The notes beneath the pieces were generated by a model. It made no database searches. It had not been told where the DNA came from and saw nothing but the letters and a program-made list of their open reading frames with translations. A stretch of DNA of 64,000 nt from Bacillales bacterium UBA1188 (GTDB taxonomy: Bacteria; Bacillota_I; Bacilli_A; Izemoplasmatales; UBA1188). The stretch is taken from assembly GCA_002310135.1 (NCBI GenBank), contig DBYK01000003.1, forward strand, positions 24,939 to 88,938, in the 5' to 3' direction. Positions 48,740 through 62,846 of this stretch are shown here, piece by piece; position 1 is the first letter of the stretch, and each line of letters opens with the position of its first letter. The position numbers were made by a program, and so were the translations under genes.

Positions 48740-48768
48740 TTGTTATATATTTTTAATTTTGTTAAAAT
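48740..48768 (+). promoter_or_regulatory. Candidate promoter of the 202-aa membrane protein gene
   Basis: TTGTTA (48740-48745), a 17-nt spacer ending in TGT, then TAAAAT (48763-48768). It is divergent from the rpsU promoter. Confidence 0.4.
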
Positions 48769-48787
48769 ATTAGAGAGGTATTTTTAT

Positions 48788-49396
48788 ATGATAAGCATAC
48801 TATTTGCAATTGATGACTTTCAAATTGATTTTAAAACTATCTTAATAATTTTAGGTGCTTTACTCATTACTATCTTTTTCTTATATATAATTGGAAAGAG
48901 AATAAGATTTAAAGGAAAAGTTAAACAACAAAGCAAAAAACTAAAGAAAAAATTTGCGAGTACATCAAAAAGTATAGAAACTATAATGTCTGAAATTGAT
49001 CAAACAAAAAAATACAATGGTTCATATAATTCTTTAAGAGGTTCTACTAAATCTAAGATTACAAAATATCTAATTAAGTGGATAGAAAAAGTTCCATTCT
49101 ATGTTTCTTTGAATCATAAAGCTAGAGAAAATAAATACAGAATCGTATGTATTGCCATTCAAGATGATTTAGAAGCAAGAAAAAATAAAGGCCAATGGAT
49201 TTATAATCCATCAGTTAAGAATAAAAAGAATTTAAAAACTCTATTAAAAGTAATCAACAAATTTAAAGTATGTAAAGCTACTTTAGATGTAATTAGTCAT
49301 ATTTTTGAACAAGAATCAATAAAAGAAAATTTCAATCAATTATATTATTCACAAGAAAATAATTTATATGTTAAATATTTAACAACAAAGAGGTGA
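48788..49396 (+). CDS. Single-pass membrane protein with a basic cytoplasmic domain, function unknown
   Basis: About 202 aa counted from the ATG that follows the GAGAGG RBS. One helix (ILIILGALLITIFFLYII) is followed by KRIRFKGKVKQQSKKLKKK. No known motif. Confidence 0.5.
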   Translation: MISILFAIDDFQIDFKTILIILGALLITIFFLYIIGKRIRFKGKVKQQSKKLKKKFASTSKSIETIMSEIDQTKKYNGSYNSLRGSTKSKITKYLIKWIEKVPFYVSLNHKARENKYRIVCIAIQDDLEARKNKGQWIYNPSVKNKKNLKTLLKVINKFKVCKATLDVISHIFEQESIKENFNQLYYSQENNLYVKYLTTKR

Positions 49397-49415
49397 TTTT
49401 TCACCTCTTTTTTAT
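49386..49415. terminator. Bidirectional terminator shared by convergent genes
   Basis: AAGAGGTGA pairs with TCACCTCTT across a 4-nt TTTT loop. It overlaps both stop codons and is followed by a T-run. Confidence 0.65.
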
Positions 49416-50239
49416 GAATTAATTATTATATTTTCAATCATTGTTTTACATTCATCAACTGTTTTAAGTGTTGGACCAATTGATAGTGTTTCTTTTATTG
49501 TTCCCCTTAAAACATAATAGCTACTTCCATCAGGGTTTACTGATATAACAAAAGATTGTTTAGAGATTTGTTTAATAAAATAATCAATTAATCGTTTAGC
49601 TTCCTTTTTATTCACGATATTAAAACTCTTCAATAACAAATTTTTATCTGAATCATATAAATGTATTTGATAAGTATCTTCATTAGATTCAATTTTCCAA
49701 TTTGATTTAGATATTTTTTTATTTATTCCTAAGTCTGAACTAAATTCAATTAAAGTGTTCTCTTCAACTAATTCAGCAGAAAATGAAGCTAAATCATTTA
49801 TTTTTAAAATATAGTCTTTAAAAGTGATCAATTCATCTACTGATTCTCTAGAATCAGATATTGCAACTATTTGATTATTAAACATGTAAATTAATCTATA
49901 TTTACCATTAATATCTTCAAAAATATTATAATTATTATCCAATATAGAACTTTTTATTTTCGATAATATTTGTTTACAAACTAAGACTGAAGATGTGTTT
50001 TCACTTTCAAGTAATTTATTTCCTTTTGAATCTAATAGATAAATATAATAATCTTGAATAGCTCTTTTAACTATTATATACGAATCTTGAGTAATAGTTA
50101 ATTTCTTGTTATTTTCTTCTCTTGGCTTTTTAATGCTTTTAATCAAAATAACTATTAAATTGACTATAATTACAACTACAAGTATGAGTATTAAAATTAA
50201 AGAATAGTACTCTTTCAAAAAATCAATGATTGTAAGCAT
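49412..50239 (-). CDS. Membrane-anchored protein with four YegP (DUF1508)-like repeats
   Basis: 275 aa with an N-terminal helix followed by KSIKKPREENNKK. Four units of about 55 aa follow, each of the form aromatic-x-hydrophobic...(D/N)(G/K)N..L..S......(A/C)...I (for example YYIYLLDSKGNKLLESE, YQIHLYDSDKNLLLKS). Confidence 0.5.
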   Translation of the reverse strand: MLTIIDFLKEYYSLILILILVVVIIVNLIVILIKSIKKPREENNKKLTITQDSYIIVKRAIQDYYIYLLDSKGNKLLESENTSSVLVCKQILSKIKSSILDNNYNIFEDINGKYRLIYMFNNQIVAISDSRESVDELITFKDYILKINDLASFSAELVEENTLIEFSSDLGINKKISKSNWKIESNEDTYQIHLYDSDKNLLLKSFNIVNKKEAKRLIDYFIKQISKQSFVISVNPDGSSYYVLRGTIKETLSIGPTLKTVDECKTMIENIIINS

Positions 50240-50241
50240 TT

Positions 50242-51720
50242 TTATTCCTCAACTAATATTTCAAATGTAGATTTTGATTCTTTTAGAATCTTTTCAGCTA
50301 TAGGTGAGATTGATTGAAGTACAAAATGCAACTTCTTATCATAAACGCCACCTCTATAAATAAGTTTATAAAATTTAACATCTTCTTTAAGTAAACCTTT
50401 TTCTTTAAGTGTTTTGACAGAAACAACTTCATTATCTTCATATAGTTTATTTACAACATCAAGGTATACAATATCTCTTTCACCTTCAACTGGAATCTTA
50501 ACAGTTTCATAAGATTCAACAAAGTTATTATTATCATCAATAGATAAAACATATCTTTTTTCTTCTCTATAAACTGCGAAGTTGTTTTTCTTTTTAGACT
50601 GTATTTCTGCGACTAAATCTGCTTCAAATTTACTAGAATAATCGCCATATTTAGCATAAGTTTTGATAAGTCCTTTTTCTCTTAATGATTCTTTTGTTTG
50701 ATATTCATAAGAATAGATTTGTTTTTCTTTTATAAATCCTTCATCAAGTAAGAATCTCTTTTTTAGATCTTTAATAAGTTCGATACCTAATTCTAGTCTT
50801 TCATCATTCTTTATTCTAAGCATTAATGGAGTTTCTTTAAATAGCGAATAATTTGACACATTTTCTAATTTAAGTTTTCTTAGATTATATTTCTCAGGCA
50901 TTAGATTTAGATAAAGAACTAAATACTTCCCTCTTATTTGCATTTTAGCGAGTTTAATCTTACCGATTGAATAGGCATCGTACTTCCAGCTGATTCTAGA
51001 TTTGACTTTTATATATGATAATAATGTATTTTTTAAAATTGAATAATATTCTTGTACCTTTGAACTTGATTGTATTAATTTAGCTTCAAAACTTCTTCTC
51101 TCTTTAACAAATACTTTTGAACCATCCACAAATATAGGTACTTTTTTGTATTTATAATCATCTTTTTTATCATCTTTATAATAATTGTCTACTTCAACAA
51201 ATTCAGTTGGATCGTATGTATATTTTTCTTCTTTTGGTTCATATTTATCTTCAATTTGAATAAGGCCTCTTTTTACGAGTTCACTTTCACTTTCAATATT
51301 TAGATAATAATTCTCATTTGGAATCTTTGAAGTTTTTAATTTAAATAAAGCAATTTCTTCATCAATTAATCTAAATGCGTATTTAAGAGTTCTATCTGAT
51401 TTAACATGCATTTTAAATTTAGTGTCTTTATATCTTCTTCTATCACTTACATCTTCTTGATGATAAATATTTTGTGGATAATTATTTGGATCTAAATTCA
51501 AATAAAGAGAAACGTATTTTCCTCTTACTGATAATTTCGCAAAATTGATTCTTCCAACATTAAATGCATCATAAAACCAACTGATTCTTGATTTCATCCC
51601 ATTAATTGACATCAATTTATTCTTTAAAATCTCATAAACCTTCTTTACTCTATCATCAGATAAAATATATTTTGCGATAAATGATTTTCTATAAGTTATT
51701 GGAACTTCCTTTTTTGGCAT
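50242..51720 (-). CDS. Lysine-rich protein with an internal duplication and a uL15-like C-terminal domain, function unknown
   Basis: 492 aa. Residues about 11-125 and 209-325 are clear paralogues (SFIAKYI...MKSRISWFYDAFNVGRINFAKLSVRGKYVSLYLNLDP versus SFEAKLI...VKSRISWKYDAYSIGKIKLAKMQIRGKYLVLYLNLMP). The tail is LKEKGLLKEDVKFYKLIYRGGVYDKKLHFVLQSISPIAEKIL. Confidence 0.5.
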   Translation of the reverse strand: MPKKEVPITYRKSFIAKYILSDDRVKKVYEILKNKLMSINGMKSRISWFYDAFNVGRINFAKLSVRGKYVSLYLNLDPNNYPQNIYHQEDVSDRRRYKDTKFKMHVKSDRTLKYAFRLIDEEIALFKLKTSKIPNENYYLNIESESELVKRGLIQIEDKYEPKEEKYTYDPTEFVEVDNYYKDDKKDDYKYKKVPIFVDGSKVFVKERRSFEAKLIQSSSKVQEYYSILKNTLLSYIKVKSRISWKYDAYSIGKIKLAKMQIRGKYLVLYLNLMPEKYNLRKLKLENVSNYSLFKETPLMLRIKNDERLELGIELIKDLKKRFLLDEGFIKEKQIYSYEYQTKESLREKGLIKTYAKYGDYSSKFEADLVAEIQSKKKNNFAVYREEKRYVLSIDDNNNFVESYETVKIPVEGERDIVYLDVVNKLYEDNEVVSVKTLKEKGLLKEDVKFYKLIYRGGVYDKKLHFVLQSISPIAEKILKESKSTFEILVEE

Positions 51721-51739: not shown

Positions 51740-51760
51740 ATAGTAGAATATTTCTACTAT
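51740..51760 (-). terminator. AT-rich 9-bp hairpin between mtaB and the 492-aa gene (weak terminator or leader structure)
   Basis: ATAGTAGAA-TAT-TTCTACTAT. On the minus strand only TTTT follows, then the GAGGTGA RBS. Confidence 0.35.
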
Positions 51761-51817
51761 TATTATATAAATATTTATAAAAAAAGTCCATTAAAAATAT
51801 TAAAACGTGTGCTTAAT

Positions 51818-54050: not shown

Positions 54051-56534
54051 TTATCCAACAGTATTTAATTGAGCGAATATTTCATCTACTAGAGTATTAC
54101 TGTGAATAATCGCAGCCTCTCTTGTTAGGTGAGATACACTATCAGTACAATCTTCAGCACTGAATAGATGATCTAAATAATTTGAAATGTAAGGAAAACT
54201 AATAGTAGATTTAACTAAGTTTGCGAAATCACCATATAATTCACTTTCACATTCAAATGCATTTTCCCACATTCCTACATGTGCAAAATACAATTTAATA
54301 GAATAAGGTAAATATTTCTCCTCATAAATTCTTTCAACTTTAGTTTGCACAATATTAGCCAATACTTGGAAATTAGGCGCAGGAGTTCTTGGCTCTAAAG
54401 AATAATGAATTATTTCAAAATTTTCTGCCCTAGTGAAGAATTCATCAACAGTATCATTATAATCTAGATATGTTAGAGTTTCATTATTTAAAATAGCTTC
54501 TATTTTCGCGCCAAATGTGAATTCACTGCTTCCATTCATATAATCATAATATGAATCGAAAAATCTTTCATAATCTCTTATATCTATTAATTTTAATAAG
54601 TCATAATAAGTCTCAAATACATACCAAACAGGTAATTCTAATGTATTAGACATCATTGTTTGACCGTATTCTGGAATGAAAACCATGATATCATTCAAAT
54701 CCATAAAATATGAGAATAGTTCGAGCATCAAACAACCACTTATATATGCGTTTTGTGCACAATTTAAGAATGTATATCCTCTTTCACTTACTCTATCGTT
54801 GATAGTTTTGCCATCTATACCTTGGAATGTAGAACTTCCACCATAGAATAAAATATAATTAAGTTCTGAATCTTTATTCTTATTTAGTATTTCAAATCTT
54901 CTAATTGTTGTTCCAATTAAATGAGCTGTACCCATAGGTGGATAATAAGCATTAACTCTTAAATTCTTAAGATTAGGACAATCTATAAATGAAGAATCAT
55001 GAATGATTTCTACTCTATCTGTCATATGTAGTGTAGTAAAGTTTATGAGGTTATTAAATGCATTATCTTTTACTTCTATGATTGAGGTAGATAAATAAAT
55101 CTCTTGAACTATAGAATTATTAATTAAGAATGAAGAATCGATTATTTTAACTTCTAAGTCTTCTATATAACTTGGTATAACGAGCACACTATCATTTCCT
55201 TTATAATTAGTAAGTTTAATGCCAGTTTTGTTCTGATGGTTATCCAAAATATAGCTATATTCAAAATCTTCTGTGTTAGATTCTTTTATCCAAATCAAAT
55301 ATAAATCTATTTCTTTATTTTCTTCAAATACCCTTGAACCTAAAGAATATGATTTACCACTTCCATCAGAAAGAGTATTATATTCTTTTATTAAATAACC
55401 TTCTCTATAAAAAGTTTTATATCCCCATTCACCTAAAGATGCAGGATAAAGATATACTGGACTATCAAAAACATAATTGATTAATTCATCGGTTGAGTCT
55501 TTGATGTTTCCACCATTTGTATGATATCTCACTAAAGCTTTATAGTTATCAGCTAAGACAAAGACAGGTGTTATATCATCTATGTCTATTTCTTCACTTA
55601 TATTTAAATTATTTGCGTATGAATATAATTCATCATTCAACAAATAATGAGAAAAGATATATCCATGATTCGGATATGCACTAAGCGTTCTCTTATCATT
55701 ATCACTAAATACATCAAGCCTACCATTTGTAAAATACAAAGATGTAGTATTCTTTTTTCTAGTATAAATAATTATATCTTGATCAGATTCAACATTATTA
55801 AAAGAGATTACTCCATCAAGATAAATTGCGCCACAATTATTTGAATAATATTCATAATCATCATCTAGAATAATGCTAAATGTTGCGTCTTCTCCTCTTT
55901 CAATAACTAATTCACTATCACCATCTATAGTATATCCTTCGCCACTAAGTAGTCTTATAGTGTATGTATCTTTGATGATTGATTTATTTCTAAGTTGAAT
56001 ACTAATATCTAAATTTGATTTGATATTAAAGATAGTTAGAATTGAATTAGTATAACTATAATCAAGATTAATTAAAGAATCTGAATTAATAATTGAGTAA
56101 AATTCTTGGCTATCATCTATTACTAAAGATAATTCTATGCTTGAACCATATAAAACACTGAATGTTTGATCATAATTGACTGTTTCTTCATTCACTAAAA
56201 AAGATAAGCCATCAGTTTTATGAACAGTTACATTATATTCATTCTTTCTGACATCTAAAGATATTGTTTTATTTGTTTTCACATTATTTATGGATAATAC
56301 ACCATTTTCAAAAGTTGCTCCTGCATTATTAGAGAAATATGTGCATCCTTCATCTATAACTATATCGAAAGTTGCTGAAGCACCATATTCAATGTCTTGA
56401 TATTTAGAAGATGTTGTATGATAAAAATCCCCATCTTCAACCATTACTCTTAAAAGTTTAGAAGTAGTGTTTACATTACATGAGGTTAAAAATATAAAAG
56501 TTATTGATAATAAAAGTAATAAGAATTTTTTCAT
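54051..56534 (-). CDS. Large lipoprotein: three tandem beta-modules, a Listeria-Bacteroides repeat, BspA-type LRR and a C-terminal SGNH/DltD-like domain
   Basis: 827 aa with lipobox FLTSC. It has three repeats of about 85 aa (…YGASATFDIVIDEGCTYFSNNAGATFENGVLS…). It also has Flg_new-like YHTNGG...GYLIKEYNT...LYLIW, LRR_5-like IEVKDNAFNNLINFTTL and GGSSTFQG ... DSVSHL. Confidence 0.6.
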   Translation of the reverse strand: MKKFLLLLLSITFIFLTSCNVNTTSKLLRVMVEDGDFYHTTSSKYQDIEYGASATFDIVIDEGCTYFSNNAGATFENGVLSINNVKTNKTISLDVRKNEYNVTVHKTDGLSFLVNEETVNYDQTFSVLYGSSIELSLVIDDSQEFYSIINSDSLINLDYSYTNSILTIFNIKSNLDISIQLRNKSIIKDTYTIRLLSGEGYTIDGDSELVIERGEDATFSIILDDDYEYYSNNCGAIYLDGVISFNNVESDQDIIIYTRKKNTTSLYFTNGRLDVFSDNDKRTLSAYPNHGYIFSHYLLNDELYSYANNLNISEEIDIDDITPVFVLADNYKALVRYHTNGGNIKDSTDELINYVFDSPVYLYPASLGEWGYKTFYREGYLIKEYNTLSDGSGKSYSLGSRVFEENKEIDLYLIWIKESNTEDFEYSYILDNHQNKTGIKLTNYKGNDSVLVIPSYIEDLEVKIIDSSFLINNSIVQEIYLSTSIIEVKDNAFNNLINFTTLHMTDRVEIIHDSSFIDCPNLKNLRVNAYYPPMGTAHLIGTTIRRFEILNKNKDSELNYILFYGGSSTFQGIDGKTINDRVSERGYTFLNCAQNAYISGCLMLELFSYFMDLNDIMVFIPEYGQTMMSNTLELPVWYVFETYYDLLKLIDIRDYERFFDSYYDYMNGSSEFTFGAKIEAILNNETLTYLDYNDTVDEFFTRAENFEIIHYSLEPRTPAPNFQVLANIVQTKVERIYEEKYLPYSIKLYFAHVGMWENAFECESELYGDFANLVKSTISFPYISNYLDHLFSAEDCTDSVSHLTREAAIIHSNTLVDEIFAQLNTVG

Positions 56535-61136: not shown

Positions 61137-62846
61137 CTATTGTCCAAATTCGTTTCCTGTTATAGGATCCCAACTTAATTCTGCAGATGTTGTAATCTTG
61201 ATACAGTCGATAACTGGAGCAGTACCAGCCATTGTACCACCCATACCATGAGAGTTAGCTGTTGTAAATCTGATTACATTTATACCTTCTTTTAAGTGAA
61301 GTGTAGTTGTTAGAACATGATCAGAGAATGGTCTCTTTCCACCTGTTGCTTCATGTCCTTGAGCATCAGTAATTTCGATAGTTGGATATATAATAGGTTC
61401 TCCATTGATTGTTATTTCATAACAAGAATAAAGAGTACCATTTTCAGTTTCACCATCATTTAAAATTGGGTCAAGAGCGAATCCCATACTTTCACATGAT
61501 ATTCTAAAGATTAATGTTGCATCTTCTACTTCTCTATCTGAGGTGATAATAAATTGAATAAATAAATCTTCTTGGAATAAGTATGTTACATAATAGCCAT
61601 TAGAAGCATTGATACCTTCTTGTCCTGTTCCAGGAGGATCAACCATGTTACGGCCTTCTGCACCACCTGATGCACCCATACCTTTTGTAGGTTGTCCGTT
61701 ATCATCAACTAACATTACGTGTTCAGCTTCAAAGATATAAGTTGCAGTCCATTTAGCATATAATGTGAAATCGCTACTTACTGAAGTATTGAAGTCATAT
61801 GCAGTTGTGCAAGCACTATCAGTATACCAACCTATGAATGTGTATTGAGATACTTGATGTCCTTTTGTACCGACACCATCTCTTGTTGGAGATGCTGGTT
61901 GAGCAACTTTCAAACCTTCTAGTACTTCAACATCATCCATTTCATCTGCACCACTATAGTTAAGATCAAATGAAACGTGGAATGTTTCAAGGTTTTGAGC
62001 TGAAGTATCTTGCCATCCAGCGTAAATAGTAATATTTGATGTGATATTGGTATCAAAACTAAACATATTTTCGCATTCTGGATCACTATACCAGCCAGTA
62101 AACACTATAGCACCATTTTCGCCTCTATTTGAAACAGATTTAGATTGAGCTTTTCCTCTTACAGTTAAACCTTCTTCATTAGTTGCGCCATCATAATTGA
62201 AGTTGTAAGTTACAGTATATTTTTGAATCCATTTAGCATATATAGTTGTATCAGCTAGAATATGTGTTAAGTTGAAATCAAATAGATTATCAAATTCAGA
62301 AGTTGTATACCAACCCATGAAATCAAAGCCACTTCTTTGTGGTTCTTCTGGAACTTCAACTAAACTATTGATTATTACTTCAACAGGCTCTAATGGCTCA
62401 GATGCTTCATAACCTAAATTGAAACTTACTAAGAATTTTGGATCACCTACTTCTATTAAATACCTAACAGTCTTGTCCTTGTATTGTAATAGAACATATT
62501 TGTCACCCTTAGATTCCATACCTGGAGCTACAACAGTAACATCATCATTAGGTAAAGTAATTTCAAGGTCAGCAGTACCATCATTGAATGTAACTAAAAG
62601 TTTTCCGCCTGATACATCCAAAGATTCATTAATCGCAAAATATAATTTATCAGGTTGCTTACTCAATGTAAGACTTTCGATATTAGATTTTACGACTTCT
62701 CCAAGCTTTTGATGGCAGTTATCGCACTTACCATCACCATCTCTATCGATATGGCTTATACAAACTAGCTTAGCTTGACAAGCAATTAATATGATAGAAA
62801 TAGAAAGCATTAATATGGAGAGAATTACATTAAAAACTTTTTTCAT
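61137..62846 (-). CDS. Lipoprotein with Listeria-Bacteroides (Flg_new) repeats and a C-terminal CBM-like beta-sandwich
   Basis: 569 aa with lipobox ILIAC. There are three repeats of the type GFDFMGWYT...IYAKW, FTGWYSD...IYAGW and FIGWYTD...LYAKW. The C-terminus YIFEAEH...NVIRF...APVIDCIKI resembles a CBM6/35-type module. Confidence 0.6.
   Translation of the reverse strand: MKKVFNVILSILMLSISIILIACQAKLVCISHIDRDGDGKCDNCHQKLGEVVKSNIESLTLSKQPDKLYFAINESLDVSGGKLLVTFNDGTADLEITLPNDDVTVVAPGMESKGDKYVLLQYKDKTVRYLIEVGDPKFLVSFNLGYEASEPLEPVEVIINSLVEVPEEPQRSGFDFMGWYTTSEFDNLFDFNLTHILADTTIYAKWIQKYTVTYNFNYDGATNEEGLTVRGKAQSKSVSNRGENGAIVFTGWYSDPECENMFSFDTNITSNITIYAGWQDTSAQNLETFHVSFDLNYSGADEMDDVEVLEGLKVAQPASPTRDGVGTKGHQVSQYTFIGWYTDSACTTAYDFNTSVSSDFTLYAKWTATYIFEAEHVMLVDDNGQPTKGMGASGGAEGRNMVDPPGTGQEGINASNGYYVTYLFQEDLFIQFIITSDREVEDATLIFRISCESMGFALDPILNDGETENGTLYSCYEITINGEPIIYPTIEITDAQGHEATGGKRPFSDHVLTTTLHLKEGINVIRFTTANSHGMGGTMAGTAPVIDCIKITTSAELSWDPITGNEFGQ

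Follow-up and report, generated by a model that had tools for sequence, protein, structure and literature searches.

What brings a duplicated basic domain and a tail resembling ribosomal protein uL15 together in one polypeptide, and what would such a protein do? The question is raised by a gene on the minus strand of a 64,000-nucleotide stretch of contig DBYK01000003.1 (GenBank assembly GCA_002310135.1, positions 24,939 to 88,938) from Bacillales bacterium UBA1188; this whole stretch is called the window, and coordinates refer to it unless another locus is named. The product, of 492 amino acids (aa), is a soluble, cytoplasmic, multidomain protein, the free-standing version of a cassette that it shares with many membrane proteins. 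Its layout is module 1, linker, module 2, helix/hairpin and uL15-like tail, given here with isoelectric points (pI) and net charges:

50242-51720, minus strand: gene of the 492-aa protein, a single complete open reading frame (ORF) with its stop, from the ORF listing
51247-51705, minus strand: module 1, residues 6-158, ending in VKRGLIQ; pI 9.6, net charge +10
51115-51246, minus strand: inter-module linker, residues 159-202, acidic (pI 5.0), of variable length and predicted to be disordered
50638-51114, minus strand: module 2, residues 203-361, ending in REKGLIK; pI 9.7, net charge +15
50488-50637, minus strand: helix (364-378) and long beta-hairpin (384-394 and 400-410), residues 362-411, in the AlphaFold2 model
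50245-50487, minus strand: uL15-like tail, residues 412-492, from profile and fold comparison; pI 5.5

The tail was compared with uL15 by profile and by fold. A first-pass annotation of the sequence had proposed that the last 65 aa run parallel to the C-terminal domain of uL15, and both comparisons bear this out. Tail residues 412-490 correspond to residues ~72-145 of bacterial uL15. The TIGR01071 (rplO) profile aligned residues 415-484 with its positions 73-141 of 144 at 24.3 bits (E=2.3e-5), below a curated cut-off of 77.95 bits that requires a full-length match, and PF00828 (Ribosomal_L27A) gave 17.6 bits (E=0.005) against a gathering threshold of 21.5. Among relatives, PF00828 scored 37.9 bits in the ortholog P0019, had precomputed matches in 19 of the 21 orthologs, and was passed by 12 of 25 large relatives (best E=3.2e-14). 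Searched as a single sequence against the Protein Data Bank (PDB), the window tail found uL15 chain 8fmw_AN at E=0.031, while a profile of 13 tails (window protein and orthologs), at E<=0.01, recovered uL15 exclusively, in 34 distinct chains with a best E of 5.9e-8. The strongest of these were the Firmicute uL15s of Enterococcus, Listeria and Staphylococcus, together with that of Borrelia. In the Foldseek comparison of the AlphaFold2 model with the PDB, the top 13 matches were all uL15 (prob 1.00, 73-86 columns), with a root-mean-square deviation (rmsd) of 1.0-2.3 Å in 12 of them and 5.5 Å in one; the best was again 8fmw_AN (E=6.5e-5, rmsd 1.0 Å, 76 columns, 32% identity). The template-modelling (TM) score normalised to the target was ~0.5, and half of uL15 is therefore covered. 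The model itself had a mean predicted local distance difference test (pLDDT) score of 80, with 83-90 in the tail and below 50 at residues 159-191.

The tail shares with uL15 its fold and the pattern K-[LIV]-[LIV]-x-x-G ... S-x-x-A ... GG. It differs in that it ends a multidomain protein, that the window sequence stays below the Pfam, TIGR and PROSITE thresholds, and that tail-bearing relatives outside its own family are membrane proteins. Nothing N-terminal of residue 412 resembles uL15 residues 1-70. Because this N-terminal, rRNA-threading half, rich in G, R and K (~70 aa), is absent, the 492-aa protein is not the ribosomal uL15; its tail is a domain paralogue of the C-terminal globular domain of uL15 and not a ribosomal protein.

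The remainder of the protein is dominated by an internal duplication. BLASTP of the two halves aligned residues 6-~190 with 203-~390 at 35% identity over 187 columns (95.9 bits, E=1e-28). The first-pass annotation had recognised residues ~11-125 and ~209-325 as paralogous, and this self-comparison supports the repeat, but the boundaries set by a hidden Markov model (HMM), 6-158 and 203-361, give longer modules of ~155 aa each. Modules 1 and 2 are 38% identical to each other and 24-40% identical to modules of unrelated proteins; the duplication is thus ancient, since module 1 is equally distant from module 2 and from the modules of unrelated proteins. The protein had also been called basic, which agrees with its pI of 9.32 and net charge of +21.

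A (K/R)-(K/R)-G-L-(I/L) element had been noted after each copy and again at the C-terminus. Three [KR]GL[IL] elements are indeed present (residues 150-154, 347-352 and 439-444), well beyond chance: the expected count in 20,000 shuffles of the protein was 0.05, and three were reached in none. The GLIK element is the conserved end of the module (L144 in 96%, L149 in 91% and K151 in 97% of 375 modules), but the GLIK-like element in the tail is the usual 'L..e.Gli' motif of uL15. A degenerate third module in the tail was considered and rejected, as hhalign of module against tail aligned 13 columns only, with a probability of 1.1%. The triple occurrence therefore reflects a duplication plus a short shared structural motif, not a third repeat.

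Each module is a divergent DUF5655, with a YjbR/YdhG-type alpha+beta fold, made of a core of ~110-120 aa and an extension of ~40 aa. This identity follows from Pfam matches in relatives, matches to PADLOC profiles, a confident model and fold comparisons. No DUF5655 match was reported for the window protein, whose modules pass no Pfam model. Against a DUF5655 (PF18899) gathering threshold of 24 bits, module 2 of the ortholog P0019 reached 27.3 bits (residues 213-309 to profile positions 9-103) and the relative P0033 reached 62.8 bits, the matched stretches lying inside its modules; when 25 isolated modules were searched, none exceeded a Pfam threshold and one matched DUF5655 at E=0.011. Both window modules matched the PDC-S18 profiles of PADLOC, PDLC04946 at residues 205-318 (module 2, E=3e-13) and PDLC04945 at residues 21-122 (module 1, E=1.4e-10). 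The AlphaFold2 model of a module alone had a pLDDT of 94.7 and a predicted TM score of 0.87. Its best Foldseek matches in the PDB were YjbR 2fki (prob 0.99, E 0.03), the YdhG/DUF1801-like 2oc6, 9t2w (prob 0.84) and 2kl4, and its top match among the BFVD viral models was a 'DUF5655 domain-containing protein' (E=4.2e-4, prob 1.0, rmsd 3.3 Å, 111 columns); the module sequence profile found no match in the PDB.

The likeness to DUF5655 covers the first ~110 residues of each module. The modules differ in adding the helix-strand extension, which is family-specific, has the consensus DY..PYE....L..RGLIK and so ends in GLIK, and in occurring in tandem arrays of 1-7. Likeness to YjbR/MmcQ (PF04237) and to YdhG/DUF1801 (PF08818; Fra of B. 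subtilis) is at the fold level only, at 12-17% identity. The duplicated domain, described earlier as unknown, is thus not an orphan, yet the family to which it maps, DUF5655, has no assigned function.

The conserved residues of the modules are basic. Across 375 modules, 15 columns were at least 70% K/R and 2 columns at least 70% D/E, the mean net charge was +8.2, and 93% of modules were net positive. Frataxin-like iron binding is associated with an acidic ridge. A frataxin-like iron chaperone of the YdhG/Fra type was rejected on these counts, the conserved residues of the module being basic, not acidic.

The PDC-S18 matches bring in an anti-phage reading, in which the protein is a defence component related to PDC-S18 and to DUF2357-type restriction-like proteins and its modules sense or bind foreign DNA. 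DUF2357 does occur in many multi-module relatives, and YjbR-type domains are found in defence contexts (PMC7641849). The matches are limited, however, to profile positions ~195-326, the C-terminal ~120 of 302-365, and the N-terminal part of PDC-S18 does not accompany the modules. Pfam and NCBIfam-type profile scans of the window protein found no nuclease, ATPase or other effector domain, and the gene lies in a vertically conserved housekeeping cluster in six loci from metagenome-assembled genomes (MAGs), not in a defence island. A single module searched by tblastn, at single-sequence sensitivity, had no match in 50,697 GenBank phage records or 72,556 PLSDB plasmid records. The PDC systems, for their part, are candidates picked out through 'guilt by embedding' and still untested (bioRxiv 10.1101/2024.01.29.577857). 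We therefore consider a role in defence very unlikely.

The search for the duplicated domain in other bacteria returned far more than the orthologs. Full-length orthologs of the 492-aa protein number 21 (P0001-P0021, 56-96% identity). In their alignment 78 columns are invariant in module 1, 32 in module 2 and 12 in the remainder of the protein, so that module 1 is the most constrained part; the linker columns are gapped and unconserved. A local HMM of the helix/hairpin (residues 362-411) run against 180 proteins found the segment in this orthologous family only, and no known relative outside it. The module profile, searched against 1.84 billion representative proteins, was found in at least 3,580 protein clusters at E<=1e-3 and in 1,770 at E<=1e-30, with up to 7 copies per protein and protein lengths up to 4,721 aa. 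Bacilli, Clostridia and Ruminococcaceae/Oscillospiraceae MAGs are the source of the named relatives, whose database labels are 'hypothetical protein' or the automatic 'uL15 family ribosomal protein' (NCBI) and 'ribosomal protein L15' (JGI). The sample analysed for architecture comprised 159 non-orthologous module proteins (148 non-orthologous top profile matches plus distant matches of the first homologue search). The uL15-like tail was present in 48 of the 159, its end never more than 10 residues from the C-terminus, and each of these 48 proteins had a hydrophobic segment before the modules. Membrane segments lay exclusively N-terminal of the modules in 102 proteins and were absent from the other 57.

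Several architectures recur. In 47 proteins one N-terminal anchor is followed by K/R-rich sequence (0.36 K+R per 15 residues before the anchor against 3.19 after it), and in 15 a signal peptide, an ectodomain of 1,000-4,000 aa and a single transmembrane segment precede the cassette. Seventeen further giant ectodomain proteins have two adjacent hydrophobic segments before the cassette, so their topology is ambiguous. The ectodomains of the giant relatives carry Flg_new, Beta_helix_3, MBG, FIVAR or Ig domains. Soluble module proteins with DUF2357 and coiled coils form another class, the DUF2357 fusion being recurrent (NCBIfam added nothing useful on these relatives), and still others are fused to GGDEF/EAL or CBM20. 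The membrane-anchored proteins annotated in MAGs as 'uL15 family ribosomal protein' (for example P0057, P0205, P0259 and P0269), and likewise P0025, P0040 and P0171, have the same module and tail as the window protein, but carry an N-terminal anchor or a 1,000-4,000-aa ectodomain and lack the helix/hairpin. The window family is the sole soluble tail-bearing architecture among the proteins examined, and the N-terminus of the window protein, MPKKEVPITYRKSF, has no hydrophobic segment and no signal peptide. The earlier statement that no characterised protein is known to combine a ribosomal module with a duplicated domain of unknown function holds as far as characterised proteins go; the combination itself is recurrent, as a C-terminal cassette.

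The cassette is placed in the cytoplasm because its soluble forms lack export signals, the anchored forms follow the positive-inside pattern, and its partner domains (GGDEF/EAL, DUF2357) are cytoplasmic. These sequence patterns suggest that the cassette, with 1-7 modules and with or without the tail, is normally the cytoplasmic C-terminus of membrane-anchored proteins in Clostridia and Bacilli, from minimal ones with just an N-terminal anchor up to giant adhesin-like surface proteins. It has to be weighed against an extracellular placement, in which the modules are envelope-binding repeats like GW, SLH or CWB2 that act on anionic wall polymers, and the window protein is secreted or leaderless. 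Such repeats would fit the way in which giant adhesin-like proteins with Flg_new, beta-helix, MBG and FIVAR domains end in basic modules, as well as the 17 giants with two hydrophobic segments. They do not fit the window family, which has neither signal peptide nor membrane segment, the 57 relatives without a hydrophobic segment, the K/R enrichment after the anchor, the fusions to cytoplasmic GGDEF/EAL and DUF2357, or the 15 giants with a single transmembrane segment between ectodomain and cassette. We regard this placement as highly improbable. Sortase anchoring of the giant relatives was rejected separately, LPxTG preceding the anchor in 0 of 32 large relatives.

Two observations concern the giant relatives themselves. 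In P0051, P0052, P0161, P0171, P0173 and 12 others, the second of the two close hydrophobic segments preceding the cassette bears a conserved motif, K-x-x-S-[FIV]-x-x-x-[LIV]-P-x-[IV]-x-[LF]-x-S-H-Y (for example KVASFSGLLPIIFLSH); this segment might be re-entrant or serve as a sorting signal not yet recognised. At the locus of P0024 (L007, 1-7557), the gene for this membrane anchor with two modules begins where a 4,664-aa ORF ends, at locus coordinate 6001, and the pair resembles the fused giant-protein-plus-cassette architecture in split form.

What, then, does the cytoplasmic cassette do? We propose that the 492-aa protein is an adaptor near the inner face of the membrane that binds a polyanion (RNA, ribosome or DNA), a reading to which we give about an even chance. 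Its basic modules would attach to a polyanionic polymer of the cytoplasm, with RNA, ribosomal particles or DNA as the most probable ligands. Polyanion binding is suggested by the conserved K/R columns, the mean module charge of +8.2, the DUF2357 fusions and the 'double-wing' DNA-binding surface proposed for YjbR, which is like the C-terminal domain of T4 MotA (PMC7641849, PMC3424535). Since module copies occur in arrays of 2-7 on flexible linkers, the tandem modules may act by avidity. The uL15-derived domain would add an rRNA- or ribosome-type contact, and the protein would work at or near the inner membrane face, possibly recruited by the membrane protein encoded downstream.

The contact made by the tail was considered through the uL15 signature. 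The PROSITE pattern PS00475, K-[LIVM](2)-[GASL]-x-[GT]-x-[LIVMA]-x(2,5)-[LIVM]-x-[LIVMF]-x(3,4)-[LIVMFCA]-[ST]-x(2)-A-x(3)-[LIVM]-x(3)-G, was matched strictly by 32 of the 48 non-orthologous tails. That the signature is kept in most tails is compatible with an rRNA-type contact, and equally with plain maintenance of the fold.

The second possibility points to a protein-protein scaffold, in which modules and tail, as interaction or oligomerisation domains, cluster or position membrane proteins with no nucleic-acid binding and the uL15 fold is recycled as a protein-binding surface. Partners as diverse as adhesin-like ectodomains, GGDEF/EAL, DUF2357 and CBM20 are what a generic localisation or clustering domain would have, the tail is not basic, and the difference in invariant columns between module 1 and module 2 (78 against 32) suggests a specific partner. 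On the other hand, 15 conserved basic columns and a mean of +8.2 per module speak more for polyanion binding, DNA binding has been predicted for the nearest folds, and the uL15 signature persists in those 32 tails. Compared with the polyanion-binding adaptor, a pure scaffold appears to us unlikely.

The genomic neighbourhood bears on both the adaptor reading and on a role at the ribosome. Read downstream along the minus strand, the genes are in turn those of an RluA-type pseudouridine synthase, of an MtaB-like radical-SAM enzyme, of the 492-aa protein and of a 275-aa protein, and then rpsU, phoH and ybeY. The same order, complete or partial (some contigs are short), was found in six MAG loci of rumen-type samples (reindeer, sheep and yak), across which the 492-aa protein is 56-61% identical. 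The features next to the gene are:

49412-50239, minus strand: downstream gene of a 275-aa membrane protein, with an N-terminal transmembrane helix, then KSIKKPREENNKK, and a soluble part of ~230 aa
51726-51731, minus strand: Shine-Dalgarno sequence GAGGTG, 5 nt upstream of the ATG of the 492-aa protein gene, read from the sequence
51762-51790, minus strand: promoter-like TGGACT-17-TATAAT in the 97-bp gap after the mtaB-like gene, a consensus match at 10/12 positions

The ATG of the downstream gene lies 2 nt past the stop of the 492-aa protein gene, and its GAGGA site lies inside the end of that gene; owing to this spacing and the internal site, the two genes are probably co-transcribed and translationally coupled. 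The 275-aa membrane protein is thus a probable operon partner as judged from gene arrangement. A homologue follows the gene in L001, L002, L004 and L006, and at L003 a same-sized ORF with no detectable similarity to the 275-aa protein takes this place. The 275-aa protein belongs to no Pfam family and has a weak NCBIfam match to the SPE_1075/MLC_0560 membrane protein family (E=0.0026). That it is the split-off anchor of the fused forms was rejected, since a simple fission would have left the two genes in the opposite order and the protein is unlike any module protein. Taken from the sequences of these loci, the conserved order in the six MAGs and the coupled stop and start lend the adaptor a context that supports it.

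The same cluster can be read as that of a ribosome-associated factor, such as an accessory ribosomal protein or a factor for 50S assembly or hibernation, whose uL15-like domain would sit at or near the uL15 site; the gene's position close to rpsU, ybeY and era would then have a functional meaning. The conserved place among tRNA-modification and ribosome-related genes (mtaB, rpsU, phoH, ybeY) speaks for this, as do the uL15 homology, the basic composition and the names given by NCBI and JGI. Those names are automatic, however, uL15 residues 1-70 are absent, TIGR01071 scores 24 bits against a cut-off of 78, and the other tail-bearing relatives examined are all membrane-anchored, some behind ectodomains of 1,000-4,000 aa. 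A genuine ribosome-associated factor is therefore, in our judgement, improbable. No canonical rplO was found in the 64-kb window, a result limited to the window and uninformative on replacement.

Several points weigh against the polyanion-binding adaptor. The PS00475 pattern is matched by none of the 21 orthologs and not by the window tail, in contrast to the 32 of 48 tails of the membrane-anchored relatives. The window tail has KLIYRGG in place of the K-[VI]-L-G-x-G signature, and the orthologous family K-[LIV]-[LIV]-Y-R-G-G; the failure comes from the Y in the [GASL] position, and the window tail is also without the final G. The window tail is slightly acidic (pI 5.5). The module's fold match to solved structures is weak (E 0.03-0.08, TM 0.46-0.57), and DNA binding by YjbR is no more than predicted. 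If both hydrophobic segments span the membrane in the 17 giant relatives, the cassette would be extracellular there. The downstream membrane protein is poorly conserved (25-32% identity) and its partnership is predicted, and distant module proteins share no genomic context with each other. What lies between mtaB and rpsU differs among Firmicutes, and synteny is for this reason weak functional evidence.

Further observations were made in and around the locus. Within the 97-bp gap, an AT-rich hairpin, AGTAGAA-ATA-TTCTACT (51742-51758, minus strand), followed by a T-run, lies directly downstream of the promoter-like sequence; it might serve as a weak terminator or attenuator, and had too few G-C pairs to be picked up by the terminator scan. 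Shuffled sequence is expected to contain as many promoter-like sites as the region does, and the promoter evidence for 51762-51790 is accordingly weak. On the other strand no ORF of at least 50 aa overlaps 50242-51720. Between the 275-aa gene and rpsU, a 218-aa ORF on the plus strand (48740-49396), with an N-terminal hydrophobic segment and no Pfam family, is kept in place and orientation in L001, L002, L004 and L006 at 28-39% identity, and is probably a real gene given this conservation. The contig at L002 (JAILNJ010000093.1; protein P0007) belongs to a MAG named 'Gammaproteobacteria bacterium' and carries the same locus, with the 492-aa protein gene, the downstream gene and rpsU; the remaining carriers with a name are assigned to Firmicutes, Bacilli or Bacillales or are called simply 'Bacterium', and the contig is probably mis-binned or the MAG misclassified.

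Elsewhere in the window, an 827-aa protein (54051-56534, minus strand) has a lipoprotein-like N-terminus (MKKFLLLLLSITFIFLTSC) and BspA-type leucine-rich repeats, and a 569-aa protein (61137-62846, minus strand) has Listeria-Bacteroides (Flg_new) repeats, the ectodomain type of the giant cassette relatives. Neither has a module or tail, and the 492-aa protein accounts for the only module and tail copies in the window. The segment 58001-64000 has a GC fraction of 0.34-0.36 against ~0.27 elsewhere in the window and encodes the Flg_new protein and a circularly permuted-looking GH3 glycosidase (C-terminal domain before N-terminal); it contains no rRNA or other Rfam match, and the Rfam scan of the whole window found no RNA family.

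Ribosomal-protein domains such as S1, KOW, L7Ae and S4 are re-used outside the ribosome. We found no report of extra-ribosomal re-use of uL15, and the literature on DUF5655, PDC-S18, uL15-like fusions and PF00828/PF18899 held nothing relevant and no characterised relative. The component families are known; their combination, abundance and apparent membrane-proximal deployment are undescribed in the literature found. Databases mislead by automatically calling such proteins 'uL15 family ribosomal protein', and the name deserves correction.

The 492-aa protein is the simplest, soluble representative of a large, unstudied cassette that decorates the cytoplasmic end of membrane proteins, including adhesin-like proteins of 2,000-4,700 aa of gut and rumen Firmicutes, and a soluble protein with confident models is a convenient start for biochemistry. 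If the cassette binds ribosomes, RNA or DNA, this would mean a widespread coupling of envelope proteins to the translation or chromosome machinery, and would give a first function to DUF5655, which recurs in a candidate anti-phage system. A bolder and more speculative form, which we think improbable, is that tail and DUF5655 modules together make a docking device by which ribosomes, pre-50S particles, rRNA or the nucleoid are tethered to the membrane on its cytoplasmic side. If true, the device would be common to giant adhesins, GGDEF/EAL enzymes and minimal anchor proteins of Firmicutes, the 492-aa protein would be its soluble adaptor version working with the downstream membrane protein, and these bacteria would possess a membrane receptor for ribosomes or nucleic acid made from a ribosomal-protein paralogue.

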